Position numbers and translations under genes: made by a program. A model generated the notes under the pieces. That model ran no database searches, was not told where the DNA came from, and was given only the letters and a program-made list of their open reading frames with translations. Below are positions 5,667 through 28,418 of a stretch of DNA of 63,949 bases, in pieces (positions within the stretch are counted from its first letter, which is position 1; each line of letters opens with the position of its first letter). The stretch is from Candidatus Dormiibacterota bacterium (lineage in GTDB: Bacteria; Methylomirabilota; Methylomirabilia; Rokubacteriales; CSP1-6), in contig DATMMH010000223.1 in the NCBI GenBank assembly GCA_035569855.1, forward strand, positions 1 through 63,949. The letters are read 5' to 3'.

Positions 5667-5902
5667 GGTCGACCTCCTTGCCGGGTGCACAACGCAACGG
5701 CCGTGCCACGAGCCTTGGCCGCGACCCTCCCGCGCAACTCCTCGCCACGTCGATCGGCGCGTCCGCGCGCGCGAGCAGTCGCGAGAAAATCCTACGCGGC
5801 GGTCGAGGAAAGAATTACTTCACCGAGGCTCTTGCTTCGCCGCGGCCGGTGGGTGATTCTTTCCCGGCCGCCGCTGCGAACGCCGCGCTCCGAGGGAGAG
5901 AC

Positions 5903-6685
5903 ATGGGACAGCTCGATGGCAAGGTCGCGCTCATCACGGGCGCCAGCAAGGGAATCGGGCGGGTGATGAGCCGCCTCTTCGCGCAGGAGGGCGCCGCGGT
6001 GATCTGCGCGGCCCGGAGCCGGGACCTGGTGGCGGAAACCGCGGCCCTCATCGAGGCCGACGGCGGCCGGGCGCTGGCGGTGACCGGCGACGCGGCCACC
6101 GAGGCCGACGTGCAGCGGATGGTGGAGGCCTCGGTCAAGGCCTTCGGCAAGCTCGACACCCTCGTCAACAACGCGGGCGACGGCGGACCGACCAAGCGGG
6201 TGCAGGAGTACACCACCGACGACTGGTTCTACACGATCAACTCCTGCCTCACCAGCTCCTACATGTGCATCCGCTTCGCGGTGCCCGCGATGATCAAGGC
6301 GGGCGGCGGCGCCATCGTCAGCGTCTCGTCCACCGCTGGCCGCCGCGGGCTGCCGTTCCGCATCGGCTACTGCTCGGCCAAGGCCGGGCAGGTCGGGATG
6401 ACCTACGGCATGGCGCTCGAGCTGGCCCCGCACAACATCCGGGTCAACGCCATCGCGCCGGGCGCGGTCGCGGGCGACCGGATCGACCGGGTCATCGCCG
6501 GGCAGGCGGAGGTGCGCGGGGTGGCGCTCGAGGACATGCGGCGCAACTTCGTCGAGCGCGCGCCGCTCAAGCGCATGTCCACCGCGGAGGACATCGCGAC
6601 GCTGGCAGTATACCTCTGCAGCGAGGCGGCCAAGAACCTCTCCGGCCAGTGCATCGCGGTCACCGCGGGCGAGCCCGCGGTCTGA
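5903..6685 (+). CDS. SDR-family oxidoreductase
   Basis: TGASKGIG cofactor motif, NNAG and YCSAKAG (YxxxK) are present. The ATG at 5903 was chosen within shadow-extended ORF 5636..6685. Confidence 0.9.
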   Translation: MGQLDGKVALITGASKGIGRVMSRLFAQEGAAVICAARSRDLVAETAALIEADGGRALAVTGDAATEADVQRMVEASVKAFGKLDTLVNNAGDGGPTKRVQEYTTDDWFYTINSCLTSSYMCIRFAVPAMIKAGGGAIVSVSSTAGRRGLPFRIGYCSAKAGQVGMTYGMALELAPHNIRVNAIAPGAVAGDRIDRVIAGQAEVRGVALEDMRRNFVERAPLKRMSTAEDIATLAVYLCSEAAKNLSGQCIAVTAGEPAV

Positions 6686-6698
6686 GCGGGGGCGCGCC

Positions 6699-9898: not shown

Positions 9899-11070
9899 TC
9901 GTCATGGCCAGCACGACCGACCGGCAGCGCGAGCTCCGCAACGTGGCCTGCATCGTGGGCGTGGACGAGAGCGACGAGATCGGAACCCTGCCCCAGAAGA
10001 GTCAGCTCTCGCTGCATCTCGAAGCCATTTCCAACGCGGTCCGCGACGCGGGGCTCAAGGTCTCCGACGTGGACGGCGTCTTCACAGCGGGCCAGCACTC
10101 GCCCGCCACCCTGGGCGAGGCCCTCGGGGTCAAGCCGCGCTACGTGGACGGCACCACGGTGGGCGGCTGCTCCTTCATCATCATGGTCGGCCACGCGGTG
10201 GCCGCCCTGCACCACGGGCTCTGCGACGTGGCGGTGGTCTCGCACGGGGAGAGTGGGCGCTCCGGCACCGGGGTCACGCGCAGCCGCGACACCGCGCTGA
10301 GCGGGCAGTTCGAGTTCCCCTACGGTTTCGGCGGCGCGACCACCTATTTCGGCATGATCACCACCCGCCACATGCACGACCACGGCACCACGCTCGAGCA
10401 GTGGGCGCAGGTGGCGGTGTCCACCCGGAAGTGGGCGGCCCTGAACCCCAAGGCGCGCTTCCGGGATCCGATCACGGTGGCCGACGTGCTCAACTCTCGC
10501 CCGGTCTCGTATCCGTTCAACCTGCTCAACATCTGCCTCGTGACCGACGCGGGCGGAGCGGTGGTCCTCACCCGCGCGGACCGAGCGCGCGATTGCGCCA
10601 AGGCACCGGTCTACGTGCGCGGCTTCGGCGAGGCCACCGAGCACGTGATGGTCACGCAGATGGAGGATCTCAGCGCCAGCGCGGCCACGCGACTGGCCGG
10701 CGAGCGCGCCTTCTCGATGGCGGGGGTGAGCGCGCGGGACTTCAACCACGTGATGCTCTACGACGCCTTCACCTCGGGCCCGCCCATCATGCTCGAATCG
10801 CTCGGCATGGCGAAGCCGGGCGAGGGTGTGCAGTTCTTCACCGAGGGTCGCGCGACCCCGGGCGGGACCCTGCCGATCAACACCAACGGGGGCGGGCTCT
10901 CCTATACCCACTCCGGCATGTACGGCATCTTCCCGATCATCGAGGCCACCCGCCAGCTCCGCGGCGAAGGCGGCGCGCGCCAGGTGCCCGGGGTTCGCTG
11001 CTCCCTGGTCAACGGCATGGGGGGCATGCTCTCCGCCGCCGGCACCCTCGTCCTCGCCAACCAGACCTGA
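9895..11070 (+). CDS. thiolase-like protein (SCP-x/non-specific lipid-transfer thiolase type)
   Basis: 391 aa with NTNGGGLSYTHSGMYG and a Gly-rich C-terminus typical of DUF35-associated thiolases. The start is GTG 9895 or ATG 9904. Confidence 0.85.
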   Translation: MIVMASTTDRQRELRNVACIVGVDESDEIGTLPQKSQLSLHLEAISNAVRDAGLKVSDVDGVFTAGQHSPATLGEALGVKPRYVDGTTVGGCSFIIMVGHAVAALHHGLCDVAVVSHGESGRSGTGVTRSRDTALSGQFEFPYGFGGATTYFGMITTRHMHDHGTTLEQWAQVAVSTRKWAALNPKARFRDPITVADVLNSRPVSYPFNLLNICLVTDAGGAVVLTRADRARDCAKAPVYVRGFGEATEHVMVTQMEDLSASAATRLAGERAFSMAGVSARDFNHVMLYDAFTSGPPIMLESLGMAKPGEGVQFFTEGRATPGGTLPINTNGGGLSYTHSGMYGIFPIIEATRQLRGEGGARQVPGVRCSLVNGMGGMLSAAGTLVLANQT

Positions 11071-11086
11071 GCGGCGGGCTCGCCGG

Positions 11087-11437
11087 CTACTCGATCGGCA
11101 CGAAGATGCAATGCCGCAGCTTGCCGTCGATCGCCTTGGACAGGTGCCCCTTGCCCCAGGTGTCCTCCACCAGGATGACCTCGCCCGCGCCGATGCGGCG
11201 CGCCTCACCGTCACTCGCGGTGATCTGCACGCCCGCGTCGAGGTTGATGATGTATTGCCGGCGCGGCGCCGGATGCCAGTCGAGATCGTAGTCCGGCTGG
11301 ACCTCGCGGAAGATGATGCCGGTGGCGGGCAGGCGCGCCGACAACCGGCCGGCGCGGCCCGACTCGGTGTACGGGACCTCCATGTCCTCGAAGTGCGACT
11401 CGCCCTTCTGGTCGACGTACAGATGATGGATCTTCAT
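11087..11437 (-). CDS. cupin-domain protein
   Basis: ATG 11437 follows GAGGAG. 116 aa with a beta-barrel-like sequence (WHPAPRRQYIINLDAGVQITASDGEARRIGAGEVILVED). The listed ORF 11087..11641 is N-terminally shadow-extended. Confidence 0.65.
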   Translation of the reverse strand: MKIHHLYVDQKGESHFEDMEVPYTESGRAGRLSARLPATGIIFREVQPDYDLDWHPAPRRQYIINLDAGVQITASDGEARRIGAGEVILVEDTWGKGHLSKAIDGKLRHCIFVPIE

Positions 11438-11699
11438 GGACGCTCCTCTCTCTGATCGCGCCGCGGCTCGGTCGCTCTCGGGAGCCGACATCCGGTGGCG
11501 GCTCCTGGCGATTCTGACGACATCATACGGCGCGGGCGCCTTCGGCACGAGTGGAGGAGGGCGCTCTCCCCCACTCGGCGCGCACCCAGCCGCCATCGTA
11601 CCCGACCGGGATGGCGCGCCCACGGTGCGACGCGCTATCATGCGACTCCACGACCGCCGCCGCGCCGGGCACGGTCATCACCCGCGAAGGAGCACGCAC

Positions 11700-12521
11700 A
11701 TGGGCTACGAGCAGATCCTCTACGAGGTGCGGGACCGCATCGCCACCGTCACCCTGAATCGTCCGGACAAGCTCAACGCGTGGACCGCGGTGATGGGGCA
11801 CGAGGTACGGCGGGCGATGCAGGAGGCGGCGCGGGACGAGGCGGTCCGCGTGATCGTGCTGACCGGCGCGGGGCGCGGCTTCTGCGCGGGCGCCGACATG
11901 CAGATGCTCTCCGGCATCGTGAGCGAGGGCGGCATCCGGGCGGAGGCCGAGCGGGCGGCCCCGCGCGAGTCGAACGAGACGCGGCTCGACTTCCAGGGGC
12001 CCTACGCCTACTTCCCGACCGTGCCGAAACCCATCATCGCCGCGCTCAACGGCGCCACCGCGGGCCTGGGCCTGGTGGTCTCGCTCTACTGCGACTTCCG
12101 CATCGCGGCCGACCGCGCGGTCTTCACCACCGCCTTCTCGCGACGCGGGCTGATCGCCGAGCACGGCGTGAGCTGGATGCTGCCGCGCCTCGTCGGCCTG
12201 CCGCACGCGCTGGACCTGCTCCTCTCCGCCCGCAAGATCGGCGCCCAGGAGGCGCTCGCGATGGGACTGGTGTCGCAGGTGCTGCCGGCGGACTCGTTCA
12301 CCGACGGGGTGCGCGCGTACGCCCGCGAGCTGGCCGACCTGGTCTCGCCGCGCTCGATGCAGGTCATGAAGCGGCAGCTCTGGGAAGCCCAGTTCCAGAC
12401 GCTCGCGGAGGCGACCGCCGTCGCCGACGAGGAGATGCGCCGGAGCTTCGGCACCGAGGACTTCAAGGAGGGCGTGGCCCACTTCATGGAGAAGCGGTCG
12501 CCGCGCTTCACGGGTCGGTAG
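11700..12521 (+). CDS. enoyl-CoA hydratase/isomerase (crotonase) family protein
   Basis: [14 protein letters not shown] and [17 protein letters not shown] oxyanion-hole motifs are present. ATG 11700 lies within the longer ORF 11436..12521. Confidence 0.9.
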
Positions 12522-12549
12522 CCGCGCGGGTGCGCAGACCTCCTCGCCG

Positions 12550-13101
12550 GTGAAGCGCCCCGTACTGATCCTCCTCAACAAGCCGTACGGCGTGCTCTGC
12601 CAGTTCACCGACCGGGCCGGGCGGCCGACGCTCGCCGACCACGTACCGGTGCGCGACGTCTACGCGGCGGGCCGCCTCGACCACGACAGCGAGGGCCTCG
12701 TGCTCCTCACCGACGACGGCGTCCTCCAGGCGCGCCTCTCCGATCCCCGCCACGGAACCGAGAAGACCTACTGGGCGCAGGTCGAGGGTGAGCCGGGGCC
12801 GGAGGTGATCGAGCACCTGGGGCGCGGGGTCGTCCTCAAGGACGGGCGGACACGGCCGGCGCGAGTCCAGCGGATCTCCGAGCCGGCCGGGTTGTGGCCG
12901 CGCGAGCCCCCGATCCGGTACCGGGCGGCGATTCCGACCGCGTGGATCGAGATCACGCTGCGGGAGGGCCGCAACCGGCAGGTTCGGCGGATGACCGCGG
13001 CGGTCGGCTATCCGACGCTGCGGTTGATCCGGGTGGGGATCGGGGAGTACGCGCTCGGGGAGCTCCGGCCGGGTGAGTGGCGGGAAGCGAAGCGCTCTTA
13101 G
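12550..13101 (+). CDS. rluE: 23S rRNA pseudouridine synthase E
   Basis: Recognisably colinear with E. coli RluE as I remember it: [25 protein letters not shown] (catalytic Asp), [25 protein letters not shown]. Confidence 0.85.
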
Positions 13102-13874
13102 AAGATGGCGTAGCCGCCGTCGATGATGAAGGTGTCGCCGGTGTGGTAGCTGCTGGCGTCGCTCGTGAGGTAGACCGCGATGCCCCCGAAGTCGCCGCCC
13201 GTGCCCCAGCGCCGCGCCGGCACTCGAGGAAGCACCCGCGTCTTGAAGGCGTCGCCGTGCACCGCCTTCTCGGTCATCGGCGTGTCGATCCAGCCGGGCA
13301 CGATCGCGTTGACGCGGATCTTGTGCCGCGCGAGGCCCACCGCGAGCGCGCGCATCACCGAGAGCATCGCGCCCTTGCTGGCCGCGTAGTGCGCGCTGAG
13401 CGGCGAGCCTTCGAGCGCGGCCAGGCTCGCGGTGACGGCCAGCGAGCCGCCTTCACCACGCGCGGTCATGTGCCGCGCCGCTGCGCGCAGCGTGAAGAAG
13501 GCGCCGTCCAGGTTGACCTTCAGCACCCGATGCCACTCCTCGGTGGTCATCTCCGCGAAGCTGGCCGCCGCGCCGCGGCCGGACACCCCCGCGTTGACGA
13601 AGCAGGCGTCCACGCCGCCGAGGGTCGACACGGTGTGGGCGAACGCGTGGTCCACCGCGGCCTCGTCGCTCACGTCGCAGCGCAGCGCGAGGGCCTTGGC
13701 CCCGATCGCGTGCAGGCGCGCCAGCGCGTGCACGTTCTTGTCCTCGTTGGTGCCCCAGATACAGACCGCGGCGCCCGCGTGCGCGAGCGCCTCCGCCATG
13801 CCGAGCCCGATGCCGCTGTTGCCACCGGTGACGATCGCGGTCTTGCCGGTGAGATCGAAGGCCTGGTACGCCAT
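13098..13874 (-). CDS. SDR-family oxidoreductase
   Basis: [12 protein letters not shown] and YAASKGA (YxxxK) motifs are present. It overlaps the rluE stop convergently by 4 nt. Confidence 0.9.
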
Positions 13875-16623: not shown

Positions 16624-17223
16624 ATGGGTAGGCTGGCCGGGCTCGCGGCGCTCGGGATCCTGCTGCTGTCCGGTTGCGCCAAGCCCGCCCGCAACGATCT
16701 CTACGTGCTCATCCCGGCCCAGGACGGACACGTCGGCGCGGTGAGCGTGGAGAGCGGCGGCAGGCAGACCGTGCTCGATCAGCCGTATGCGACGGCGCGG
16801 GTGACAGAGCCGGGTCGGGTCGAGCCGGGAGCGATCACCGAGCAGGAAGTCCAGAAAGCCTTCGGCGTCGCGCTGGCCGCCCAGCCCGGCCGGCCGATCT
16901 CGTTCATCGTCTACTTCCTCGAGGCGCGCGACGAGCTGACCCCGGACTCGAAGCAGATCGTGGGCCGGATCATCGACGAGATCGCCCGGCGACCCGCCCC
17001 GGAGATCATCGTGATCGGGCATACCGACCGCGTCGGCACCGTACCCTACAACGACGCGCTCTCGCTCCGGCGCGCGGAGCGCGTACGGGACGAGCTGGTG
17101 AAGGCGGGCGTCGCGGTCGAGCGGATCCGCGTCGAGGGCCGCGGGGAGCGCGAGCCGCTCGTGCCCACGGCCGACGAGGTGGCCGAGCCGCGGAATCGAC
17201 GCGTGGAGATCAACGTTCGATAG
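16624..17223 (+). CDS. OmpA-family lipoprotein
   Basis: Lipobox LLSGC is present. The C-terminal OmpA-like domain reads IGHTDRVGTVPYNDALSLRRAERVRDELV...NRRVEI. Confidence 0.85.
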   Translation: MGRLAGLAALGILLLSGCAKPARNDLYVLIPAQDGHVGAVSVESGGRQTVLDQPYATARVTEPGRVEPGAITEQEVQKAFGVALAAQPGRPISFIVYFLEARDELTPDSKQIVGRIIDEIARRPAPEIIVIGHTDRVGTVPYNDALSLRRAERVRDELVKAGVAVERIRVEGRGEREPLVPTADEVAEPRNRRVEINVR

Positions 17224-19390
17224 CAGAGTGGGCGATAGCAGCAGAGTGGGCGCCAGACACCGACGCGGTTCCGGCGAAGCGTAGGATGAGCACCGCGATG
17301 TCGTCGGAGGGCTCGGCGCTGCCGGTGAACCCGGCCACGTCACCCCGGATGGTCTCCGCGACCTCGGCCGCGCTCGTGAGTGAGCCGAGTCGCCCGAGCA
17401 GCGCCTCGAGGCGCGCGCGCCCGTAGAGCTCGCCGCTCGGGCTCGCCGCCTCCGTGATGCCGTCGGTGATGAGGCACAGCGTATCGCCGGGCTCCAACCG
17501 CCGCCCGGCCGCCGTATAGGGGAACCCGTCCACCGCGCACAGCGGCGGGCCACCGCCTTCGTCCAGCCGGCTCAGGAGACGTGCGCCTCGTGGCAGCAGA
17601 TACGGCGGCTCGTGGCCCGCGATGCAGTACTCGAGATCGCCCGTCCGCGCGTCCAGGATGCCGGCCAGCACCGTCACGAACAGACCCTCGCCGTTGTCAC
17701 GGGAGATCTCCGCGTCGGCCTCGCGCATCATCGCGGCCACCTGACCGTGCCGGCGCAGCGCGGTGCTCTTGTAGAGCGCCTTGCTGATCGCCATGAAGAG
17801 GCTCCCGGGCAACCCCTTGCCGGACACGTCGCCGATCATGAAGAAGAGGTGGTCGGGGTCCAGGTAGAAGAAATCGTAGAGGTCGCCGCCCACCTCTCGG
17901 GCCGGCTCGAGCAGCGCGTAGAGATCGAAGCGGGTCTCGCCGGGGAAGGCCACCGCGGGGCGGGGCAGCGTGCCCATCTGGATGCGCCGCGCCGCTTCGA
18001 GCTCGCCGGCGAGCCGGGCCGCCGCCTCGCGCTGCTGCTCGATCTGCCGGCGCAGCGCGCGACGCTGGCTCTCCGCCTCGGTGAGGGTGAGCGCGAGCAT
18101 CACCGTGAACAGCACCGCGAGAGCGAGCGAGGGCGTGGCGGCGTCGAAGAGCACGCCCCGGCCGAGGTAGCCGAGCACGCCCAGCGCGACGAACGTGCCG
18201 ATCAGCAGCAGGAGCAGCGCCACCGACCGCCGCGCGCGAAGCCGCGGCACCGCCGCGAGCAGGAGGAGGCCGCCCAGCGATAACCCGACGATCTCGATCC
18301 AGTGCACGAGCGTGGGCCGGGACAGGAGCGACCCCTCGACCAGGCCTTCGAGGAGCTGGGCGTGGATCTCGACGCCCGACATCTGATCCGCTACTGGAGT
18401 CCCCTGAGCATCGGACAGGCCGAGCGCGTTCGCCCCGATCAGGACGAGGCGTCCCTGGAAACGCTCCGCCTCGACGAGCCCGGCGAGCACATCGGCGGCC
18501 GAGACGAACCGCGCGGGGTCGTGGTGGCTGTAGTGCAGCCACACCCGGCTATCCCGCTCGGTCGGCACCACCAGATCCCCGACGGCGGCCACCAGCATCC
18601 CGCGCGCCCCGACCCGCACGGTGACGGCCGGCACGCGCGCGGCCACGCGCAGCATCTCAAGCGCAAGGGTGGGCATCACGGTGCCGCCTACCACCGCGAG
18701 GAGCGGCACGCGCCGCACCACGCCACGCTCGGCGTCGACGCTGACCAGTCCGCGACCCATCGCGGCCCCGTCGATCTCCGGTACGCTGCCGACCCCGGTC
18801 GAGAACCTCGGCAGGAACGGGGCGGGGTCGGCACCGAAGGCCCGCACCGGGGCGGACCCGACGGCCCCCGGCGTGGCGTCACCACCGTCGGCGCCGGCCA
18901 CGCCCAGGACGACCGGCCGGCCGCGCAGGGCGCGGGCGAGTACCGCGTCATTGCTGGCCATCGCCGCGAGCTTTTGAGCCAGGTCCGCGTCGAGGCCCTC
19001 GACGAGCTCTCCGAGCCGACCAGGGGAGAGCCGATCGTACTCGGGCATCAGGATGTCGAGCCCGATCGCCGCCGGGTGTGCGTCGCTGATCCGGCTCACG
19101 AGCCGGGCCAGCCGGGTGCGCGGCCACGGCCACTGGCCGAGCCGCTTCAGGCTTTCGTCGTCGATGGCGACGATCACCACCGAATCCGAGCGGCGAACCC
19201 GCGGCGCGCGACTCTGGTAGGTGTCGAAGCAGGCCAGGCGGAGGACCTGGAGCCCGGGCGTCTCGGGCAGCCACACCAGGACCACCAGCACCGCGAGCAG
19301 CAGGAGACCCAGCGGGCGGCCTCGCCCGCCGCGGAGCAGGCGGGCCCATCGCCGCTCCATCCAGTGCGCCGCACCCGACGGCGCGCCCAC
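17210..19390 (-). CDS. CHASE2 sensor - transmembrane - PP2C/SpoIIE serine phosphatase
   Basis: The N-terminal CHASE2 domain shows VVIVAIDDESLKRLGQWPWPR, followed by 3 predicted TM helices. The C-terminal SpoIIE domain shows GGDLYDFF...MIGDVSGKGLPGSLFMA. The start may instead be ATG 19360 (MERRWARLL). Confidence 0.8.
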   Translation of the reverse strand: MGAPSGAAHWMERRWARLLRGGRGRPLGLLLLAVLVVLVWLPETPGLQVLRLACFDTYQSRAPRVRRSDSVVIVAIDDESLKRLGQWPWPRTRLARLVSRISDAHPAAIGLDILMPEYDRLSPGRLGELVEGLDADLAQKLAAMASNDAVLARALRGRPVVLGVAGADGGDATPGAVGSAPVRAFGADPAPFLPRFSTGVGSVPEIDGAAMGRGLVSVDAERGVVRRVPLLAVVGGTVMPTLALEMLRVAARVPAVTVRVGARGMLVAAVGDLVVPTERDSRVWLHYSHHDPARFVSAADVLAGLVEAERFQGRLVLIGANALGLSDAQGTPVADQMSGVEIHAQLLEGLVEGSLLSRPTLVHWIEIVGLSLGGLLLLAAVPRLRARRSVALLLLLIGTFVALGVLGYLGRGVLFDAATPSLALAVLFTVMLALTLTEAESQRRALRRQIEQQREAAARLAGELEAARRIQMGTLPRPAVAFPGETRFDLYALLEPAREVGGDLYDFFYLDPDHLFFMIGDVSGKGLPGSLFMAISKALYKSTALRRHGQVAAMMREADAEISRDNGEGLFVTVLAGILDARTGDLEYCIAGHEPPYLLPRGARLLSRLDEGGGPPLCAVDGFPYTAAGRRLEPGDTLCLITDGITEAASPSGELYGRARLEALLGRLGSLTSAAEVAETIRGDVAGFTGSAEPSDDIAVLILRFAGTASVSGAHSAAIAHSAIER

Positions 19391-19424
19391 CGGGCCATCC
19401 GGGCCTGCGCTCAGAGCCGTCGCC

Positions 19425-20402
19425 TCAGAGCGCGATCTCCATCCCGTCGTAGGCCGAGTGGACCTCGACCCGGTGATCGGTCCGCGTGATCTCTTCCAGC
19501 CGCCGGGTCTCGGCCAGCAGCTTCGCGATGCGCTCGTCGTCGAAGATCGGCTCGTGGTGATAGAGACAGAGCCGGCGCGCCCGCGCGAGCTGGCACATCT
19601 CCACCCCCACCACGTTGCTCGAATGCCCCCAGTCCTCCTTGACCGAGATGGCGTCGGCGAGCGAGTACTGCGCGTCGAAGATCACGAGATCGGCGTCGCG
19701 GAAGAACTCCACGAAGGCCTTCACCTCCTCCGGGTCGTCCTGCTTGTGCTCGGAGTCGGTGGAGTAGACGACCACCTTGCCGTGCCGCTCGATGCGGTAG
19801 CCGTAGGAGTCGCCGCCGTGGTGCTGGCGCTTGGCCCGGACCCGCAGCCCCGCGATATCGTAGTCGCGCTCGGGCTCGAGCCGGATGAACTCGATCCGGG
19901 CGTTCATCCGAGAGAAATCGACCGGGAACGACGGCGCCGCGTTCTGTCGGCGGAAGGCTTCCTCGAGGGTCGCGTGACAGCCGTAGATGCGCACGTGGTT
20001 GCCCGGCAGGTAGGCGGGCATGAAGAACGGGAATCCCATGATGTGGTCCCAGTGGAGATGCGACATGAAGACGTGGAAACGATGGCCGCCGGGCCCGCGC
20101 GTCGCCAGGACGCTGTTACCGAACAGCCGCGCGCCGCTGCCCAGGTCGCATAGCACGTAGTCCTCCGCGCCCGTCTCGATCTGCACGCACGAGGAGTTGC
20201 CCCCGAAGGTGTGGGAGACCGAGAAGTCGAGCTGCTGCTCGACGAAGGCGCGCGCCTTGCCCGGGGTGTCGAGCCCGCGCCCGGCGGCGGCGACCAGCGC
20301 GGCGACGAGCTTGCGCTTCACCTCGGCCGAGGTCATGGCCACCGGGATCGAGCCCCGCGTGCCCCAGAACCGGACGAGCACCGGTCCGCCCTCAGGCGGC
20401 AT
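19425..20402 (-). CDS. MBL-fold metallo-hydrolase
   Basis: HLHWDH (HxHxDH) motif and an N-terminal VRFWGTRGSIP are present. ATG 20402 lies 8 nt upstream of the STAS stop codon (11-nt overlap). Confidence 0.8.
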   Translation of the reverse strand: MPPEGGPVLVRFWGTRGSIPVAMTSAEVKRKLVAALVAAAGRGLDTPGKARAFVEQQLDFSVSHTFGGNSSCVQIETGAEDYVLCDLGSGARLFGNSVLATRGPGGHRFHVFMSHLHWDHIMGFPFFMPAYLPGNHVRIYGCHATLEEAFRRQNAAPSFPVDFSRMNARIEFIRLEPERDYDIAGLRVRAKRQHHGGDSYGYRIERHGKVVVYSTDSEHKQDDPEEVKAFVEFFRDADLVIFDAQYSLADAISVKEDWGHSSNVVGVEMCQLARARRLCLYHHEPIFDDERIAKLLAETRRLEEITRTDHRVEVHSAYDGMEIAL

Positions 20403-20766
20403 CGAAGGCGGCCAACGCGGCGGCCGAAAGCTTGGCCAGGGCCTCGCGCAAGGTCGGGAAGACCTCGAGCACCAGGTGGAAGCGGCTGATCTCGAAGATC
20501 TCGCGCACGACGGGCTGCAGCCCGGCCACCACCAGAGCACCGCCCTGCGCCTTCGCCTGCTTGGAGGCCAGCATGAGCACGCGAAGGCCGACGCTGCTGA
20601 TGTACTCGACGCCGGTCAGGTCGAGCACCATCCGGTCGCGGCCGGCCGCGCAGGTCGTGAGATGGGGAGCGAGCGCCGCCTTGAATCCGTCCGCCGTCGC
20701 GTGGTCGATGCGGCCCTGAGGGAACAGGGCCACCATGTCGGCGAAGCGCTTCGACATCAGCTCCAT
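20392..20766 (-). CDS. STAS-domain anti-sigma-factor antagonist (SpoIIAA/RsbV-like)
   Basis: LDLTGVEYISSVGLRVL carries the conserved phosphorylatable Ser context. About 124 aa. The start is uncertain (ATG 20766, 20757 or 20817). Confidence 0.75.
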   Translation of the reverse strand: MELMSKRFADMVALFPQGRIDHATADGFKAALAPHLTTCAAGRDRMVLDLTGVEYISSVGLRVLMLASKQAKAQGGALVVAGLQPVVREIFEISRFHLVLEVFPTLREALAKLSAAALAAFDAA

Positions 20767-20985
20767 ATCCCACTCCCACGCTCTGTTCAGGTCGACTCGG
20801 GGGCCCGATTCTATCATTGCGCCGCGCTCGTGGGGGCCGGGCTTGTGGCACACCTGAGATCTCGTGCCTGAGCGCGATATCCCATGGACTAGTCGGCTTG
20901 TGGTTCGGGCTGCCCCGGGGCCGGGCGCCGGTGGTACAGACCACGGTGGCCCGCGGGGGGCACACCGGCCGGCCCGCGGGCCCGG

Positions 20986-21055: not shown

Positions 21056-22756
21056 GTGTACGATCTCGTGATCGACAACGCTCGGCTCATCGACGGTCTC
21101 GGAACTTCTGCGCGCGACGGCAGTCTCGCGGTGACGGACGGGCGCATCGCGGCGATCAGCGGCGACCGCCGCGCCGGCGATCTCGGACCCGCGCGCGAGC
21201 GCGTGGACGCGGGCGGGCTCGTGCTGGCCCCGGGCATCGTGGACCTGCACACGCACTATGACGCGCAGCTCACCTGGGATCCCTACGCGACGCCATCGAC
21301 CGCGCTCGGCGTCACCACGGTGGTGATCGGCAACTGCGGTTTCACCATCGCCCCGTGCCGTCCCGCACATCGCGACCTCACCGTGCGCAATCTCACCCAC
21401 GTCGAGGGGATGTCGCTCGAGGCCATGCGCGCCGGGATCAACTGGGACTTCGAGAGCTATCCGGAATACCTGGGCTCGCTGGAGCGCCGCGGGCTCGTGC
21501 CCAACGTGGCGTCGTTCGTCGGCCACTCCTCGGTGCGCACCTACGTGCTCGGCGAGGAGGCCAGCTCGCGCAAGGCCACCGACGCCGAGATCGCGGAGAT
21601 GCGCCGGATCGTGGTCGAGGCGCTGCGGGCCGGGGCCATCGGCTTCGCCACGTCCACCCTCGAGCAGCACAACGGCGAGAATGGCATCCCGATGCCCTCG
21701 CGCCTGGCCGACGAGCGCGAGATGACCGCGCTGACCGGCGCGCTCGGCGAAGTGGGGCGCGGCGTCTTCATGCTCACCAAGGGCATGACCACCACGGTGC
21801 CGTGGCTCGAGTCCATCGCGGCGGCCAACCGCCGTCCGGTGATGATCGCGGCCATGTTCGTCGACCCGGGCGATCCGACTCGCGTCTTCCGCGAGCTGTC
21901 CGAGATCGAGGCGGCCCGCTCCCGCGGGCGGGAGCTGTGGGCGCAGGTCGGGTGTTTCCCGCTGGGCATGGAGTTCACCCTGCGGCATCCCTACCCGCTC
22001 GAGGCGTTCCTCGCGTGGCGCCCCGCCATCGTGGCGGAGGGCGAGACGCGCTATCGCGCGGTACTCGCGGACCCTTCTTTCCGGGCCGCGCTCAAGAAGG
22101 AGATCGGCCAGCCGGGCGTGCCGAACCGCTTCAGCGACAAGAACTGGGATCACCTGACCATCACGGCGGCGACGCGCCCCGAGCATCGGGCGCTCGAGGG
22201 CCAGACCATCGGGACGCTCGCGCGCGAGCGGGGCCAGGACCCGTGGGACTGCTTCCTCGACTTCGGCCTCGACGGTGAGCTCGACGCGATGTTCGACTGC
22301 CGGCTCTTCAATATCGACGAGGATGAGGTGCGACGGCTCCTGCGCCATCCCAACGCGGCGGTGGCCCTCTCCGACGCGGGCGCCCATCTCTCGTTTCTCT
22401 GCGACGCGGGCTTCGGGCTCCATCTCTTCGGGCACTGGGCGCGCGAACGCGGCGACCTCACGCTCGAGCAGGCGGTGCGCGCGGTGACCGCCGCGGTGGC
22501 CGACGCCTACCGCATCAAGGATCGCGGGCGGCTCCGGCCCGGTGCGTGGGCCGACCTAATGCTGTTCGATCCGGCCACGGTGGGGCGCGGCGGCAAGCGG
22601 CGCGTGAACGATCTGCCCACCGGGGCGAGCCGCCTCGACACCGGCGCGGTGGGACTCCTCGGGGTGTGGGTCAACGGGGTTCGGACCGTGGACGAGCGCG
22701 GCGTGGTCCGTGACTGCGGCCGCCCGGGCCGCCTCCTCCGCGATTTCAAGGACTGA
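21056..22756 (+). CDS. N-acyl-D-amino-acid deacylase family amidohydrolase
   Basis: 566 aa with an N-terminal DLVIDNARLIDG...APGIVDLHTHYD metal-binding HxH, and PGAWADLMLFDP near the C-terminus. Confidence 0.85.
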   Translation: MYDLVIDNARLIDGLGTSARDGSLAVTDGRIAAISGDRRAGDLGPARERVDAGGLVLAPGIVDLHTHYDAQLTWDPYATPSTALGVTTVVIGNCGFTIAPCRPAHRDLTVRNLTHVEGMSLEAMRAGINWDFESYPEYLGSLERRGLVPNVASFVGHSSVRTYVLGEEASSRKATDAEIAEMRRIVVEALRAGAIGFATSTLEQHNGENGIPMPSRLADEREMTALTGALGEVGRGVFMLTKGMTTTVPWLESIAAANRRPVMIAAMFVDPGDPTRVFRELSEIEAARSRGRELWAQVGCFPLGMEFTLRHPYPLEAFLAWRPAIVAEGETRYRAVLADPSFRAALKKEIGQPGVPNRFSDKNWDHLTITAATRPEHRALEGQTIGTLARERGQDPWDCFLDFGLDGELDAMFDCRLFNIDEDEVRRLLRHPNAAVALSDAGAHLSFLCDAGFGLHLFGHWARERGDLTLEQAVRAVTAAVADAYRIKDRGRLRPGAWADLMLFDPATVGRGGKRRVNDLPTGASRLDTGAVGLLGVWVNGVRTVDERGVVRDCGRPGRLLRDFKD

Positions 22757-23012
22757 GGGGACCGCTCCGGCCGTCTGAAGACTCGCTGAAGATTAGGGTT
22801 AGGCTACCTAATGCCGCCCTGCTAGCCTCTTGGTGTCGATCGACGCGAGCCAGCGCGGGGTGGCACCCATGGGTCGGCGCCGGTCATTCTCAGGCACATC
22901 CAGCGGGCCAAGCGATCGTCTGGTCCGGCATCGCGTTGGCCTGGCGGCCTCCCAGAACTGGCGGAGGCGGGCCGCCGCTCGTGAGCTGCTGCATTCCCGA
23001 GTCGGCCGAGAA

Positions 23013-23030
23013 GTGTCAGCTGACTGACAC
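23013..23030. promoter_or_regulatory. 18-nt inverted repeat GTGTCAG-ctga-CTGACAC
   Basis: Perfect 7-bp arms at 23013-23019 and 23024-23030, inside the 424-nt spacer and about 40 nt upstream of the predicted -35. Confidence 0.3.
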
Positions 23031-23070
23031 TCTGGGGTAGCCGCAAGGCCCCTCATACCCTACCGGGCCA

Positions 23071-23100
23071 GTTACAGATACGTAATCAACTACTTACAAT
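23071..23100 (+). promoter_or_regulatory. sigma70-type promoter candidate for the SPFH operon
   Basis: GTTACA (23071-23076), an 18-nt spacer, then TACAAT (23095-23100), in the most AT-rich stretch of the spacer. RBS AAGAGGAGGGG lies before ATG 23181. Confidence 0.4.
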
Positions 23101-23180
23101 CCTCCCTCTGTGGCAATCCGATTGCACATTCCTCCCGACTGGTCCGGCACGCCGCCGGCCAACAGTAAGAGGAGGGGCTC

Positions 23181-23681
23181 ATGGCAGTGACCGTCGCCAG
23201 CAGACTCGAGCGCCTGGTCCGCTTCGTCCCGGGGGTCGCCGGGTACCAGGACCGCGAGAACTCTCGGGCCACCGACAAGCAGGTCCGGATGCGGCTCGTC
23301 GCGGAGATGCGGCGCCTAATGCGTGGGCTGGAGGAGGACAAGGCCCGGCTCGCCGGATCGCAAGACCTGAGCGCCCTGCCCCGGCTCGAGCGGCTCTCGG
23401 GCCGGCTCGAGCGCCTGACCCGCACCGTCGAATTCGCGGGCCAGGGCTACGCCGGGCTCTTCGACCTCCACCGGGTCGACGAGGAGACTCTCGACCAGCT
23501 CTACGCCTTCGACCTGGGCCTGTTCGACGCGCTCAACGTGGTGCGGGCCAAGGCCGAGGCGCTCCGCGCGGCGCTCGGCGACGCGGAGGCGCTGGACGGT
23601 GCGGCGCGACACATGAAGGAAACCCTCGACGACTTCGAAGAGCTCTTCGACAAGCGTCGGCGCATCGTCGACGCGGACTAG
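23181..23681 (+). CDS. hypothetical all-helical protein, first gene of the SPFH operon
   Basis: 166 aa with a strong RBS (GAGGAGGGG 4 nt before the ATG). The sequence is heptad-like and Leu/Arg/Glu-rich ([19 protein letters not shown]...). I recognise no family. Confidence 0.7.
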
Positions 23682-23695
23682 GACGGATCGACCCC

Positions 23696-24751
23696 ATGGC
23701 CATCCTGATGGAAGTCATCGAGTGGTTCGACCAGACCGGCACCGGCATCGTGCATCGCTATCCGGAGGGGGGCTCCGGCGACATCAAGATGGGCGCACAG
23801 CTCATCGTGCGCGAGAACCAGGCCGCGGTCTTCTTCCGCGACGGTCAGGGCCTCGACGTGCTCGGGCCCGGCCGGCACACCCTCTCGACCCAGAACCTGC
23901 CAATCCTCACTCGCCTGCTCTCGCTGCCGTGGGGCTTCACGAGCCCGTTCCGCGCCGAGGTGTACTTCGTCAATCTGAAGGTGTTCACCAACATGCGCTG
24001 GGGCACCAAGGACCCGGTGACCTTCAAGGACACCCAGCTCGGCCTCATCCGGCTTCGCGCGTTCGGCAGCTTCACCATGCGCGTGAGCCAGCCGCTGCTC
24101 TTCGTGAACAGCCTGGTGGGCACCCAGGGCTCCTACACCACGGACCAGATCGAGGACTACCTGCGCGACGTCATCGTCGCGCGACTGAACGACTTCCTCG
24201 GCGAGACGGTCCAGAGCCTGATCGATCTTCCCCAGAGGTACGACGAGATGGCGGCAGCGGTGAAGACCCGTCTCGTCGACGAGTTCCGGAAGTACGGCAC
24301 CGAGATCGTCGACTTCTACATCAACCGCATCACCCCGCCCGAAGAAGTGGAGCGGATGATCGACGAGCGCTCCGGCATGGGCGCGGTCGGCGATCTCGAT
24401 CGCTTCCTCAAGTTCAAGGCCGCGAAGGCCATGGGCGACGCCGCGCAGAGCGGCGGCGGAGTGGGCGGCGGCGCGGCGGCAGGCGTGGGAGTCGGCGTGG
24501 GCGCGGGCCTCGGCATGATGATGCCGGGCATGCTCGCCCGGACCATGGGCGGGGAGCCCGCGGCCGGCACCGCCGCGGCGGTCACGGTCACGTGTCCCGG
24601 CTGTCAGGCGACGGTCGCCGCGGACAATCGGTTCTGCCCTCGCTGCGGCCGACTGCTCGCGACCGCGGTCCGCTGTGCGCGCTGTCAGACCGAGCTGCCC
24701 GGCGGCGCCCGGTTCTGTCCCTCGTGCGGGCAGGCGGTGACCGGAAGCTAG
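23696..24751 (+). CDS. SPFH/band-7 protein of the YdjI (COG4260) type with C-terminal double zinc ribbon
   Basis: VIEWFDQTG...[17 protein letters not shown]...RAEVYFVN...WGTKDP...RLRAFGSF is typical of this family. It is followed by a Gly-rich linker and then CPGC-x10-CPRC and CARC-x10-CPSC. Confidence 0.85.
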
Positions 24752-24774
24752 CGCCGGTCGCCCCGGCCGCGGCC

Positions 24775-26265
24775 ATGAGCCAGGTCGTCGTCTCGACGGA
24801 GTGTCCCTCCTGTGGTGGGCCGCTCGACTTCTCCGAAGGCGCCAACGCCATCCGCTGCCCGAGCTGTCGCTCCACGCTCCTCGTGACCGGCCGCAAGCAG
24901 GTGCTGAGCTATTGGGTGGCACCGAAGGTCAAGGCGGAGGTGGCCGGCGCGGCCGCCCGCACCGGGCGGATCGAGGCCCGGGTGGCGCGGGCCGAACTCT
25001 ACTTCGTTCCCTTCTACCGGCTGACCGGCCACGACTTCCAGTGGCAGGACGCCCCGCCCCGGCCCGCTCCCGAGCCGGGCGTGTTCTCCCTCGGCGGCGC
25101 GGGTGGGTCCGATCCGGCCGAGCTCGATCTCCAGGTCGGCTCGATGCTGAGCTGGAGCGCCGACGTGCTCCTCGGCAAGCGGGCCGGCAACGTGGTGCGC
25201 GATCTGCTCGGAGAGAATCGGCCGTCCCCGCGTACGCTCGAGCAGGCGGTGCTGACCGTCCCACGCGCCGCCCCCGCGCCGAGCGCCGAGCGGTCGGTAC
25301 AGTTTCTCGACCGCTACGTGGAGAAGACGTTCCCGGCCGCCGACCTCCCGGGCCTCGGCGCCTTCTCCCTGGGCGTGCGCACCCAGGCGCTCCGGATCTC
25401 GCTGTTCCAGCGCGACGCGCTGGCCGCGCTCGGTAAGGTCGTCGCGGTACAGGTGAGCCAGGACGCGGCGATGACGCAGGGGCTCGCCGCGCCCGGTTTC
25501 GAGCACGTCGTCTATCGCCAGGTGCTCGGACGCATCCTCTCGGTGATCTACTTCCCGTTCTGGGTCGTCGAGCTCTCCCAAGGCGGTCAGGAGTGGCTCA
25601 CCATCGTGGCCGGCGTGGCCGAGAGCGTGATCCAGCCCCGCGCCCCGCTCGCCCTCTACGAGGCACTCGGCCGGACCGCGAGCGACGCCCCGCTCACGGT
25701 GGGCTTTCGCCCGCTCGTCTGCCCCAACTGCGGATGGGATCTACCGGTCGAGCCCGACGACGTGATCTTCTGCTGCACCTCGTGTCAGCGGACGTGGCAG
25801 ATTCACGGCACCGAGATGGCCGAGATCCCGCACGAGATCGCCACACCGAGCACGGCCGATCAGATCTCGGGCACCTCGGGCGCTCCGCTGTACCTGCCAT
25901 TCTGGCAGCTCGCCCCGTCGGCGGGCACCGGGTCCCACGTCTGGGAGCCCGCATTCCGCTACCGGCGTCTCAAGGTCCTGCACGATCTCGGACTTCGGCT
26001 GTCGACCAAGACACCGGCCTATACGCCGTGGGCCGGCGAGTGTCCGACGCTTCGTGGCTGCTTCTACGATGCCGAGGACGCGACGCGGCTGGCGCGCTTC
26101 ACCGCGGCGGGAGAGCGCCGGACCCCGGAGGCGGTGAAGGTGGCCGCAGCGGCCGAGCCGATCTTCGAGGCCCCGCGTCTGACGTGGATTCCCTTCAAGC
26201 GTGAGAGCCAGTCACTGGTCGATCCGTTTACCGGGCTCGCGCTCCAGGAGGCCCTGCTTGGCTAA
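24775..26265 (+). CDS. 496-aa hypothetical protein with two zinc ribbons
   Basis: ATG 24775 lies within the out-of-frame-extended ORF 23722..26265. Two ribbons are present: CPSCGGPL-x12-CPSC at the N-terminus and CPNCGWDL-x11-CCTSC at about residue 320. Recurrent motifs are YFVPFY, YFPFW and YLPFW. Confidence 0.75.
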   Translation: MSQVVVSTECPSCGGPLDFSEGANAIRCPSCRSTLLVTGRKQVLSYWVAPKVKAEVAGAAARTGRIEARVARAELYFVPFYRLTGHDFQWQDAPPRPAPEPGVFSLGGAGGSDPAELDLQVGSMLSWSADVLLGKRAGNVVRDLLGENRPSPRTLEQAVLTVPRAAPAPSAERSVQFLDRYVEKTFPAADLPGLGAFSLGVRTQALRISLFQRDALAALGKVVAVQVSQDAAMTQGLAAPGFEHVVYRQVLGRILSVIYFPFWVVELSQGGQEWLTIVAGVAESVIQPRAPLALYEALGRTASDAPLTVGFRPLVCPNCGWDLPVEPDDVIFCCTSCQRTWQIHGTEMAEIPHEIATPSTADQISGTSGAPLYLPFWQLAPSAGTGSHVWEPAFRYRRLKVLHDLGLRLSTKTPAYTPWAGECPTLRGCFYDAEDATRLARFTAAGERRTPEAVKVAAAAEPIFEAPRLTWIPFKRESQSLVDPFTGLALQEALLG

Positions 26266-26704
26266 GACACGCACGGTCGTTCGCGGTCTGCTCATCGTCC
26301 TGGTCCTCTCGCTGGTCGGGTTCGTGGGCTTTCACGCGGCGCGCTTCGCGCGCTCCTGCGTCACCCTCGACGGCGCTCGCGAGGCCATCGAGGCCCACGT
26401 CAAGCATCGGCAGGTGCGCCGGATGGCGCGCGTCATGAAGGCGGCCGACCAGCAGGTACTGGCCGCTCGAACGGTGGTGCACGTGACCACGCTCTCCTGC
26501 GGGCCGAGCCTGCTCGGAGGCATGACCTGCCGCGCTCACTACGTGGTCAACGGTCAGAGCGCGGGGATGGAGAGCACCGACCACTACTTCCGATTGGCGT
26601 ACTCGCTGCTGGCGGGCTGGCAGGTGACGAGCGTCACCGAGACGTCGGGACTGCGCTACTCGCTGGCGCCCTGCCGCTGCTCGCTGGTCGCCGACGCGCG
26701 GTAA
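26258..26704 (+). CDS. small N-terminally membrane-anchored hypothetical protein
   Basis: TTG 26258 lies 6 nt after GGAGG (26247-26251) and overlaps the upstream TAA by 8 nt. The TM helix is GLLIVLVLSLVGFVGF. About 148 aa. Confidence 0.55.
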   Translation: MAKTRTVVRGLLIVLVLSLVGFVGFHAARFARSCVTLDGAREAIEAHVKHRQVRRMARVMKAADQQVLAARTVVHVTTLSCGPSLLGGMTCRAHYVVNGQSAGMESTDHYFRLAYSLLAGWQVTSVTETSGLRYSLAPCRCSLVADAR

Positions 26705-27303
26705 CCGTGGCGGGCCGCCGGCCGCGGCCGCCGGTGGCGATGGCCGTCTCGGCGGCCCGGCATCCAGGCCTCCGGCTTGCGCCCGCCGTCGGCGGGCTCG
26801 GGGCGTGAGCCCAGGATCGGGAAAACCCGGGTGACGAGATCTTCGTACTCCTCCACTGTCTTCCGGTAGATGTCGAGCCCGGCCACCAGGTGGAGATCGA
26901 GCGAGGCCGGAAACCCAGCGTCCGCCCGGGCCGAGACGTGCACCGCCTGGAAGCACGAGCGCCCCGTCGCAGGCCGGTCGGTCACGATGATCTCGTAGAG
27001 CTCGGGCCACTGGTGGGCGATCTCCGGCGACCGCGAAAGCGAGTCGCGTCGGAGATAGTCCTCGAGATCGGCGCGGTACTTCACCTCCACCGCGAGCAGC
27101 CGATACGAGTGGTGACCGAGGCTCGGCTCGTCCAGCGCCCGCCACACCACGAAGTCGGGCATGAACTCGGCCCGGCCCGTCCGCACGAGGGCCGAGATCT
27201 GGCTCTCCCGCCCCACCCGGGCTACGGTGTAGCCCGCGCGCTTGAAGATGCCTTCGACCAGCGCCTCGGCCATGCGGCCCTTCAGGAGGTTGATCTGATC
27301 CAT
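26656..27303 (-). CDS. PD-(D/E)xK nuclease-fold protein (restriction endonuclease/Hjc-like)
   Basis: GRMAEALVEGIFKRAGYTV...MPDFVVW...LLAVEVKYR matches the E / PD / ExK core order. The C-terminal 40 aa are Arg-rich and overlap the convergent gene by 49 nt. Confidence 0.6.
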   Translation of the reverse strand: MDQINLLKGRMAEALVEGIFKRAGYTVARVGRESQISALVRTGRAEFMPDFVVWRALDEPSLGHHSYRLLAVEVKYRADLEDYLRRDSLSRSPEIAHQWPELYEIIVTDRPATGRSCFQAVHVSARADAGFPASLDLHLVAGLDIYRKTVEEYEDLVTRVFPILGSRPEPADGGRKPEAWMPGRRDGHRHRRPRPAARHGYRASATSEQRQGASE

Positions 27304-27306
27304 GGC

Positions 27307-27723
27307 TCAGCGCTGCGAATCGGAGATCTTGACCGAGAGCGCGCGAAGCCGCTCCAGGGTCTCGGGTCGTAGCATCGCGGCGAAGCCGGCCGGATCCGAC
27401 TTGGCCCGATCGAGGGCCTCGCTCATGAGCTTCGGATCGCCCCCCGAATTCCGCACCAGGTCCGCGAACACCTCGGCCGCGAGCCCGTAAACCTCCGGGG
27501 CGAGCTGGGCGCCCGCCATACCCTGCACCTGGCGGTCGATCTCGGAGGCGGCCGGGCTGGTGGCGATCACCTGGCCCCGCATCGCGGGATCGGCCAGCAT
27601 CTTGAGCGTCGCGGCCAGAGCCTCGGCGGAGGCCGGGTCGAGCGTCTGGGGATGGAGCGGAGTCGCGGTGAGCGTCAGGAGGAGGATCGAAGCGAGCCAG
27701 GCCGTCGCGAGCTTGGTGATCAT
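27307..27723 (-). CDS. exported helical hypothetical protein
   Basis: ATG 27723 gives signal peptide MITKLATAWLASILLLTLTATPLHP. The stop lies 3 nt before the ATG of the nuclease-fold gene. Confidence 0.6.
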   Translation of the reverse strand: MITKLATAWLASILLLTLTATPLHPQTLDPASAEALAATLKMLADPAMRGQVIATSPAASEIDRQVQGMAGAQLAPEVYGLAAEVFADLVRNSGGDPKLMSEALDRAKSDPAGFAAMLRPETLERLRALSVKISDSQR

Positions 27724-27825
27724 GACGCCGAAACCAGCAAGAGTCGGACCACCGCGGAGCGCTCCCTGCACGTAGAGAAAATCCGCACTTGGCAACGCGC
27801 CGCGCCGGCCGGTTGACACCCCGCT

Positions 27826-27840
27826 TGACATCCGATGTCA
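27826..27840. promoter_or_regulatory. 15-nt palindrome TGACAT-ccg-ATGTCA in a divergent promoter region
   Basis: Perfect 6-bp arms. It is preceded by a direct TTGACA...TTGACA repeat (27813-27818 and 27825-27830). Confidence 0.3.
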
Positions 27841-27866
27841 GACCGCTCACCGGGAGTGGACACGGC

Positions 27867-27895
27867 TTGACCGCCCGCTCCCTCGGGAGAATAAT
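27867..27895 (+). promoter_or_regulatory. sigma70-type promoter candidate for the RidA gene
   Basis: TTGACC (27867-27872), a 17-nt spacer, then AATAAT (27890-27895). GAGGAGAGGA precedes ATG 27948. Confidence 0.4.
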
Positions 27896-27947
27896 CGCCG
27901 GGCGACCCCACCCCTTCCGTCACCTCGTCGAGAGAGAGGAGAGGACG

Positions 27948-28418
27948 ATGGCCACGACCGCTCACCGGGAAGAGATCTGGGTGCCGGGCATGCCCGAGCC
28001 CATCAGTCACTTCGTCCACGTGGTCCGCGCCGGACGGCTGGTCTTCGTCTCCGGCTGCGTGGCCAGCGATGACCACGGGCGCACCGTGGGCGGCAACGAC
28101 ATCGTCGCCCAGACCCGCCAGGTCCATGAGAACATCAAGCGCTGCCTGGCCGCGGCCGGCGCGACCTTCGCCGATGTCTGCAAGGTGACCGTCTACCTCA
28201 AGAACGTGGCGCACCGCGAAGCGGTCAACACGGTCCGGAAAGAGTACTTCGGGGCGAGCCGGCCCGCCAGCACCCTGATCGAGATCTCCCAGTTCGTCCG
28301 GCCGGACCTGCTCATCGAGGTCGAGGCGGTGGCGGTGCTGCCGGAGCGGAAGAGCGCGAAGCCGCGCCGGCCGGCGCGGGCGGGCCGAGCCCCCGCACGG
28401 AAGGCGCGCCGCCGCTGA
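27948..28418 (+). CDS. RidA/YjgF/UK114-family protein with polybasic C-terminal tail
   Basis: VRAGRLVFVSG...DIVAQTRQVHENIKRCL...VTVYL...IEVEAVA is typical of RidA. ATG 27948 lies within the longer ORF 27789..28418. Confidence 0.8.
   Translation: MATTAHREEIWVPGMPEPISHFVHVVRAGRLVFVSGCVASDDHGRTVGGNDIVAQTRQVHENIKRCLAAAGATFADVCKVTVYLKNVAHREAVNTVRKEYFGASRPASTLIEISQFVRPDLLIEVEAVAVLPERKSAKPRRPARAGRAPARKARRR

Follow-up and report, generated by a model that had tools for sequence, protein, structure and literature searches.

The locus at positions 23181-26704 of the 64-kb stretch of DNA analyzed here (the window, to which all coordinates refer unless another locus is named) encodes an SPFH protein of the YdjI/SamI type together with partner proteins. 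Its conserved unit consists of three genes, g1 for a four-helix-bundle protein, g2 for the soluble SPFH protein and g3 for a soluble protein with two zinc ribbons. We read the locus as a stress-induced, PspA-independent YdjI/SamI-type SPFH module, a reading to which we give about even odds (probability roughly 0.5), and we infer its membrane association, the contacts between its proteins, the signal that induces it and what each partner does. New here are a sigma-54 promoter with an upstream palindrome and two protein families that have neither a Pfam model nor a described function. The window has a G+C content of ~70% throughout and its proteins find their closest database relatives in the Methylomirabilota (Rokubacteria).

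The genes of the locus and the ribosome-binding-type sequence inside it are:

23181-23681, plus strand: g1, open reading frame (ORF) of 166 aa
23696-24751, plus strand: g2, ORF of 351 aa
24775-26265, plus strand: g3, ORF of 496 aa
26246-26251, plus strand: AGGAGG upstream of the g4 TTG, read from the sequence
26258 (TTG start) to 26704, plus strand: g4, ORF of 148 aa

Gaps of 14 nt and 23 nt separate g1 from g2 and g2 from g3, and g3 overlaps g4 by 8 nt. An earlier description made from the letters and ORFs of the window, here called the sequence-only reading, had proposed four co-directional genes with these spacings, which the ORF coordinates bear out. It was also right in taking gene 1 (166 aa) to be all-helical, as is its AlphaFold2 model, in assigning two ribbons to gene 3 (496 aa), whose ribbon cysteines are invariant in an alignment of 20 homologues, and in calling gene 4 a single-pass membrane protein, which has one N-terminal hydrophobic segment.

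The main evidence for a functional unit is its conservation. A genome scan with a 13-sequence g1 alignment yielded 37 loci, and profile searches of all their ORFs recovered the order g1-g2-g3 in every one of the 31 that have enough downstream sequence; the other six end at a contig edge and were not judged for the triad. As the order recurs in 31 of 31 such loci, the arrangement is not a product of chance. The triad, which is also present in locus L003, occurs in Methylomirabilota, Nitrospirota (Thermodesulfovibrionales, Sulfobium), Chloroflexota, Acidobacteriota (Thermoanaerobaculia) and Binatia, that is, in at least five phyla. This list is a lower bound, because the scan finds only g1 relatives with the motif G[VI][AG]GY[QL]D[RKQ]E. 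The sequence-only reading had envisaged co-conservation of all four genes; this holds for g1, g2 and g3 but not for g4, which is confined to 12 close Methylomirabilota loci. Two Manganitrophaceae contigs carry g2 and g3 without g1. In five loci (L010, L011, L014, L016, L021), g1 is ~80% identical to that of the window and the gene order is the same where the sequence suffices; their labels (Nitrosotalea, Acidoferrum, Limnocylindria, Verrucomicrobiia and Deferrimicrobiaceae, respectively) conflict with this sequence similarity and probably reflect mis-binned contigs of metagenome-assembled genomes. In L003, a 72-aa g1-like ORF (1945-2163, profile E=1e-13) lies ~2 kb upstream of the full-length g1 homologue and may be a gene fragment or partial duplicate.

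Judged by its sequence, g2 is clearly a YdjI/SamI-type SPFH protein, as the sequence-only reading had it. Its architecture is of the COG4260 type, in which a Gly/Met-rich linker connects the SPFH domain to a zinc ribbon at the C-terminus. Band_7_1 (PF13421) matches aa 19-229 over model positions 1-210 of 211 (E=7.3e-70, 235.3 bits, cut-off 24), and the C-terminal double zinc ribbon (aa 297-346, nt 24584-24733) is recognized by DZR (2.7e-10) and Zn_Ribbon_1. Our reference for YdjI, YdjG, YdjH and PspA was a B. subtilis-type pspA-ydjGHI contig (L005), found by scanning metagenome contigs with the ydjG primer sequence printed in PMC8581546. A full-length BLASTP alignment of g2 with YdjI (347 columns at 26% identity, E=3e-35) includes the linker and the terminal ribbon. 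No transmembrane segment is apparent in g2: the hydropathy of every 19-residue segment stays below the threshold of 1.6. In Bacillus, YdjI brings PspA to the membrane, and its own membrane localization depends on YdjG and YdjH (PMC8581546). A PspA-independent role has been described in the ‘brake’ model, according to which SamI restrains SamGH (bioRxiv 10.64898/2026.02.06.704340). Since SamI is reported to exert this restraint without PspA, a YdjI-type system that lacks PspA altogether is plausible.

The AlphaFold2 model of g1, computed from a 60-sequence alignment, has a predicted local distance difference test score (pLDDT) of 91.6 and a predicted template modelling score (pTM) of 0.85. It comprises a short N-terminal helix, followed by four helices of ~30 residues (25-59, 66-96, 101-130, 135-165) that form a compact bundle. 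An exhaustive HMMER search for the family returned 942 representative clusters at E<=1e-3 and 327 at E<=1e-10. Its members are mostly 160-190 aa long and share a conserved PGxxGYxDRExxRxxDK motif, a GYxGxFD element and five invariant residues, R29, D32, R36, D111 and R159. No Pfam family matches g1, and its sole database family match is NCBIfam NF047596 (‘LIMLP_15305 family protein’, Leptospira, E=3e-8), to which g1 aa 30-162 align at nearly full length (positions 39-172 of 175). The curated cut-off, however, is 210 bits and g1 scores only 33.8 bits, which makes it a distant relative and not a member of NF047596. A search of the literature on LIMLP_15305 and Band_7_1 found nothing functional. 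The g1 family, which partners YdjI-type SPFH genes, is without a Pfam model or a described function. Some of its members (representatives P0360, P0288, P0359, P0384) have a DUF4178 fused C-terminally to the g1-like domain; Ravi et al. (PMC11237479) reported DUF4178 in PspA-CesT/Tir-polyamine operons. In P0357 it is fused to a long, disordered tail rich in Gly, Ser and Thr; the gene for this protein adjoins a DUF2207 gene and has no SPFH gene nearby.

The sequence-only reading, which could not place gene 1, held that it might replace PspA. Compared by hhalign, the g1 family profile matches PspA with a probability of 0.4%. In a Pfam scan of 60 g1-family members at E<=1, neither PspA_IM30 nor Snf7 is among the 25 most-matched of the 157 weakly matched families, the most-matched being coiled-coil noise. 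Foldseek searches of the PDB with the g1 model returned generic helical bundles (best match IncA, E=0.08), with no PspA, Vipp1, CHMP or Snf7/ESCRT-III structure in the best 50 of 494 weak matches, and the model has a compact bundle instead of a long alpha1-alpha2 hairpin. When PDB sequences were searched with g1, g2, g3 and the g1 family profile, all matches were coiled-coil or zinc-ribbon noise. Because the results from profile, Pfam scan and fold are all negative, we conclude that g1 is neither homologous to PspA nor folded like ESCRT-III proteins.

This leaves a reading in which the locus is a diverged pspA-ydjGHI system and g1 replaces PspA in function only, as a non-ESCRT-III analogue in membrane remodelling or sealing that the SPFH protein would recruit to damaged membrane. 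The position of g1 directly upstream of the SPFH gene, as pspA heads the Bacillus operon, speaks for it, as do the short helix predicted in front of the long ones, the deep conservation of the g1-SPFH linkage and a sigma-54 control (see below) that parallels that of E. coli pspA. Yet g1 has no sequence relation to PspA, its four ~30-residue helices pack differently from a PspA hairpin, the structure searches did not retrieve the PspA/Vipp1/ESCRT-III group within the scope given above, and g4 is unrelated to YdjH. We consider this functional replacement unlikely.

The third member of the unit, g3, has a CPSC...CPSC ribbon at aa 10-31 (nt 24802-24867) and a CPNC...CTSC ribbon at aa 316-337 (nt 25720-25785). 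After each ribbon comes an alpha/beta module with a Y-x-P-F-W strand. In the AlphaFold2 model (pLDDT 74.5, pTM 0.72), ribbon 1 is followed by a strand, a helix and a long hairpin and, after a variable, disordered linker (aa 100-172), by a second alpha/beta region that contains ribbon 2. Pfam recognizes no domain in g3 beyond weak ribbon matches, and Foldseek searches of the PDB and BFVD with the model yielded nothing below E=0.03 and only Trm112-like ribbons. Homologues, some of them from Manganitrophaceae, reach down to ~40% identity, and neither they nor g3 have a transmembrane segment. A relationship of g3 to DUF4178 was considered and rejected (hhalign probability 0.2%).

YdjG has been described as consisting of two ribbons, an NTF2-like domain and a C-terminal transmembrane segment (Ravi et al., PMC11237479). 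Each g3 ribbon matches the YdjG ribbons with an hhalign probability of 95-96%, and g3 aa 6-85 align to YdjG aa 52-145 over 77 columns (probability 96%). In a database of 3456 sequences, a hidden Markov model (HMM) of the ribbon-less YdjG domain had g3 homologues as 15 of its 15 top non-self matches, all below significance, and an HMM of the ribbon-less g3 C-terminus matched all 120 YdjG homologues at E-values of 0.06 or worse. The source of this reciprocal and exclusive signal is a repeated Y-[IVL]-P-F-W-h-h-[DE]-L strand. The design of g3 thus appears YdjG-like and the two proteins may share ancestry, with homology beyond the ribbons suggestive only.

Among known systems, pspA-ydjGHI (pspA-samGHI) of B. 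subtilis is one of the closest to the locus. Each of the two operons is compact and co-directional, with the gene for a helical protein at its head, both encode homologous YdjI/SamI-type SPFH proteins with Band_7_1, a low-complexity linker and a C-terminal zinc ribbon, and the partners g3 and YdjG both have a ribbon from about residue 5, a second ribbon and repeated Y-x-P-F-W strands. However, searches of the 64-kb window and of the 37 related loci gave no homologue of PspA (phmmer) or of the TPM-domain protein YdjH. The sequence-only reading had suggested a comparison of gene 4 with YdjH; YdjH matches TPM_phosphatase (PF04536) at 3.1e-23, whereas g4 has no TPM domain and is missing from several Methylomirabilota loci and from all other phyla, so that this identification fails. 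Further, g3 is ~150 aa longer than YdjG, lacks its C-terminal transmembrane segment and has its ribbons separated by ~300 aa instead of ~45 aa. The SPFH gene stands second in the present locus and last in pspA-ydjGHI, and the promoter is of the sigma-54 type, in contrast to the sigma-W dependence of the Bacillus operon (PMC8581546). Because the links to PspA and YdjH are unsupported and that between g3 and YdjG is suggestive only, we regard the locus as a distinct, PspA-less sister system and not, as the sequence-only reading put it, as a rearranged and diverged pspA-ydjGHI.

Turning to regulation, we aligned the 200 nt before g1 from 11 loci and found two invariant blocks amid variable sequence. 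The elements upstream of g1 are:

23013-23030, strand not applicable: perfect palindrome GTGTCAG-CTGA-CTGACAC, centred ~90 bp upstream of the -24 element, sole match in the window
23111-23126, plus strand: sigma-54 (RpoN) -24/-12 promoter TGGCAATCCGATTGCA, exact fit to TGGCA-N6-TTGCW
23169-23175, plus strand: Shine-Dalgarno sequence GAGGAGG for g1, 5 nt before its ATG, invariant in the 11-locus alignment

The pattern TGGCA-N6-TTGCW has two matches in the window, compared to 0.03 expected by chance. Its parts TGGCAAT and TTGCA are invariant in the 11-locus alignment. In 18 Methylomirabilota loci, the g1 start is preceded by an equivalent site at -56 to -74. The block AGAAGTGTCAG..ACTGAC is likewise invariant amid variable flanks, and 11 loci of the Methylomirabilota have the palindrome at -154 to -163, counted from the g1 ATG. 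We propose the palindrome as a candidate upstream activator sequence for an enhancer-binding protein. In the Methylomirabilota, the operon is thus predicted to sit behind a conserved sigma-54 promoter layout of the enhancer-dependent type. The strong ribosome-binding site claimed for gene 1 by the sequence-only reading is the GAGGAGG listed above. Its promoter candidate needs a correction: the only sigma-70-like site (23071-23100) falls in sequence that relatives do not conserve, and for this reason we do not regard it as the main promoter, whereas the sigma-54 element is invariant.

The E. coli pspA gene has a sigma-54 promoter that PspF activates via an upstream activator sequence. The present locus shares with pspF-pspABCDE the -24/-12 promoter, a conserved upstream palindrome at enhancer distance and the character of a stress-type operon. 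It differs in lacking PspA, PspB, PspC and a nearby enhancer-binding protein, and activator binding is presumed. The second exact sigma-54-type site of the window, TGGCAGTCCCATTGCA at 49484-49499 (plus strand), is located just upstream of an ORF (49508-50053, plus strand) with a signal-peptide-like N-terminus followed by many RQDxRDI-type charged repeats. This ORF, preceded by a gene for a protein that looks like a helix-turn-helix domain plus tetratricopeptide repeats (48528-49373), may be another sigma-54-controlled envelope or periplasmic stress gene.

Beyond the triad, the gene neighbourhoods of more distant relatives point to a common core with changing additions. The five distant stand-alone g1 homologues that we sampled (26-34% identity) all adjoin a gene for a Band_7_1+DZR protein or sit one gene away from it, and the third gene varies from case to case. 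In L006 it encodes a secreted protein of 400 aa, which we rejected as a g3 relative (probability 0.3%), and in L051 and L053 small unknown proteins. In L008, a gene at 5588-6763 between the g1-like and the Band_7_1 gene encodes a protein abbreviated here as ZnR-TM-Toastrack, which combines a zinc ribbon at the N-terminus with a single transmembrane segment and a Toastrack domain (DUF4097). A gene encoding a GAFTGA motif is located at the end of the same locus, near 10244 on the minus strand. In L041-L046, a long NfeD gene overlaps or closely follows the g3 stop; in L043, NfeD (10947-12443) is followed by a classical transmembrane stomatin (12525-13304), which places two different SPFH systems in one gene string. 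Because the distributions of dyad, triad and partners differ across loci, we describe the system as layered: the g1-SPFH dyad is most widespread, the g1-SPFH-g3 triad is found in a large clade, and lineage-specific membrane partners come on top. In line with the sequence-only reading, the contexts of the conserved unit, namely ZnR-TM-Toastrack, NfeD-stomatin, sigma-54 control and the fusion of g1-like domains to DUF4178, point to membrane or envelope stress.

Stomatin/SPFH-NfeD operons, such as Pyrococcus PH1510-PH1511 and E. coli QmcA-YbbJ, are a further group for comparison. In both systems an SPFH scaffold is encoded with dedicated partners, and in L041-L046 the triad runs directly into NfeD. 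Yet g2, a member of the soluble Band_7_1 branch, lacks a transmembrane anchor, NfeD is missing from the window, and neither g1 nor g3 is related to it. SPFH proteins are also known to restrain or enclose their partners, as HflK/C do for FtsH and stomatin for NfeD. By analogy, the triad could be a regulatory or quality-control scaffold, in which an SPFH ring restrains or encloses a partner, g1 is a sequestered signalling or regulatory protein and g3 a gatekeeper. The conserved buried charged residues of g1 (R29, D32, R36, D111 and R159) fit a bundle that binds a ligand or partner better than a structural polymer, one g1-family member has a weak match to the four-helix bundle of the TorS sensor, and the co-linearity with NfeD-stomatin and the SamI ‘brake’ model (bioRxiv 10.64898/2026.02.06.704340) point in the same direction. 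However, the triad has no consistent link to a protease, kinase or transcription factor, and NfeD occurs in one lineage only, where its own stomatin adjoins it. In view of this we hold such a scaffold to be improbable.

Downstream of g3, the genes are conserved in close relatives only. The product of g4 is a single-pass membrane or secreted protein with a hydrophobic segment at aa 2-31 and no match in Pfam or NCBIfam, and its homologues are absent from L014, L025-L027 and every locus of another phylum. The 3' end of g4 is overlapped by 49 nt by a convergent gene (26656-27303, minus strand), whose 215-aa product has a PD...EVK motif of PD-(D/E)xK-like type; next to this follows g6 (27307-27831, minus strand, 174 aa), with one hydrophobic segment. 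Neither product has a match in Pfam, NCBIfam or PADLOC. The three genes co-occur only in close Methylomirabilota relatives, and the more distant L025-L027 lack the PD...EVK gene and g6 as well as g4. As they are confined to these close relatives, we place all three outside the conserved system, with g4 an optional, lineage-specific accessory membrane protein and not part of the core.

The proximity of the PD...EVK gene, conserved alongside g4 and g6 in close relatives, is also the sole support for a role of the locus in anti-phage or abortive-infection defence, which the sequence-only reading had entertained. The nuclease-like gene is convergent, however, and no triad locus beyond the close Methylomirabilota group has it. 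PADLOC-DB v2 models match none of the six proteins, save for a hit of the g3 zinc ribbon to HEC-08 (E=0.005), and no relatives of g1 or g3 were found in IMG/VR viral contigs, phage genomes or plasmids. The triad is surrounded instead by housekeeping-type genes that differ between phyla. A defence function in concert with the PD-(D/E)xK-like gene therefore appears very unlikely.

Upstream of the locus, on the opposite strand, three genes occupy 17210-20853. The first encodes a protein of 726 aa with hydrophobic segments and a C-terminus that by eye looks PP2C/SpoIIE-type, the second a protein of metallo-beta-lactamase fold and the third a STAS-domain protein; together they may form a partner-switching stress-signalling cluster. 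No Rfam family was found in 22000-28000.

In the PspA-independent module that we favour, an enhancer-binding protein encoded elsewhere would bind the palindrome and turn the operon on upon a signal, after the model of E. coli PspF. On the cytoplasmic side of the membrane, g2 would oligomerize into an SPFH ring or cage, and g3, by analogy to YdjG, could serve as the zinc-ribbon adaptor by which this assembly is docked or regulated. Since g3 itself lacks a membrane anchor, contact with the membrane must be made by g2, through its hydrophobic Gly/Met linker, or by lineage-specific membrane partners, or by both; such partners would be g4 here, ZnR-TM-Toastrack in one lineage and NfeD-stomatin in another. 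The g1 protein would be an obligate client or regulator of the SPFH scaffold, holding the operon position that PspA has in Bacillus but being a different kind of protein.

Several observations weigh against this picture. No transmembrane segment is predicted in g1, g2 or g3, for which reason membrane association of the core is an assumption, and the NfeD of L041-L046 may have the downstream stomatin, and not g2, as its partner. In other phyla, a search upstream of g1 did not find the sigma-54 element, which makes this form of regulation lineage-specific, and a search by the GAFTGA motif revealed no enhancer-binding protein in the window or in the vicinity of the Methylomirabilota loci. Concerning the parallel to YdjG, the ribbons of g3 match those of g2 itself almost as well as those of YdjG (hhalign probability 91-94%), and without the ribbons the comparison of g3 and YdjG drops to an hhalign probability of ~1% and HMM E-values of 0.06 or worse, below significance.

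A bolder version would take g1 and g3 as two unrecognized families that, with the YdjI-type SPFH protein, constitute an ancient, PspA-independent membrane-stress machine of many phyla, in which g1, and no ESCRT-III protein, is the effector deployed by the SPFH scaffold and which is switched on through sigma-54 in the Methylomirabilota. We think this rather doubtful. If it were true, PspA in the Bacillus operon would be a lineage-specific substitute for g1, or the reverse.

To our knowledge, YdjI/SamI is the only member of the soluble Band_7_1 branch of SPFH proteins that has been studied, and its function has so far been read through PspA. In at least five phyla, however, a YdjI-type SPFH protein is tied to two uncharacterized partners and no PspA, a linkage that fits the recently reported PspA-independent roles of SamI (bioRxiv 10.64898/2026.02.06.704340). 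The carriers are mostly uncultured soil and sediment bacteria, which limits the immediate experimental reach. For the study of SPFH and Psp systems, the locus adds two new partner families and, with the sigma-54 promoter and its palindrome, a regulatory handle, and its natural variants separate a core of g1, SPFH and g3 from the adaptors g4, Toastrack and NfeD.

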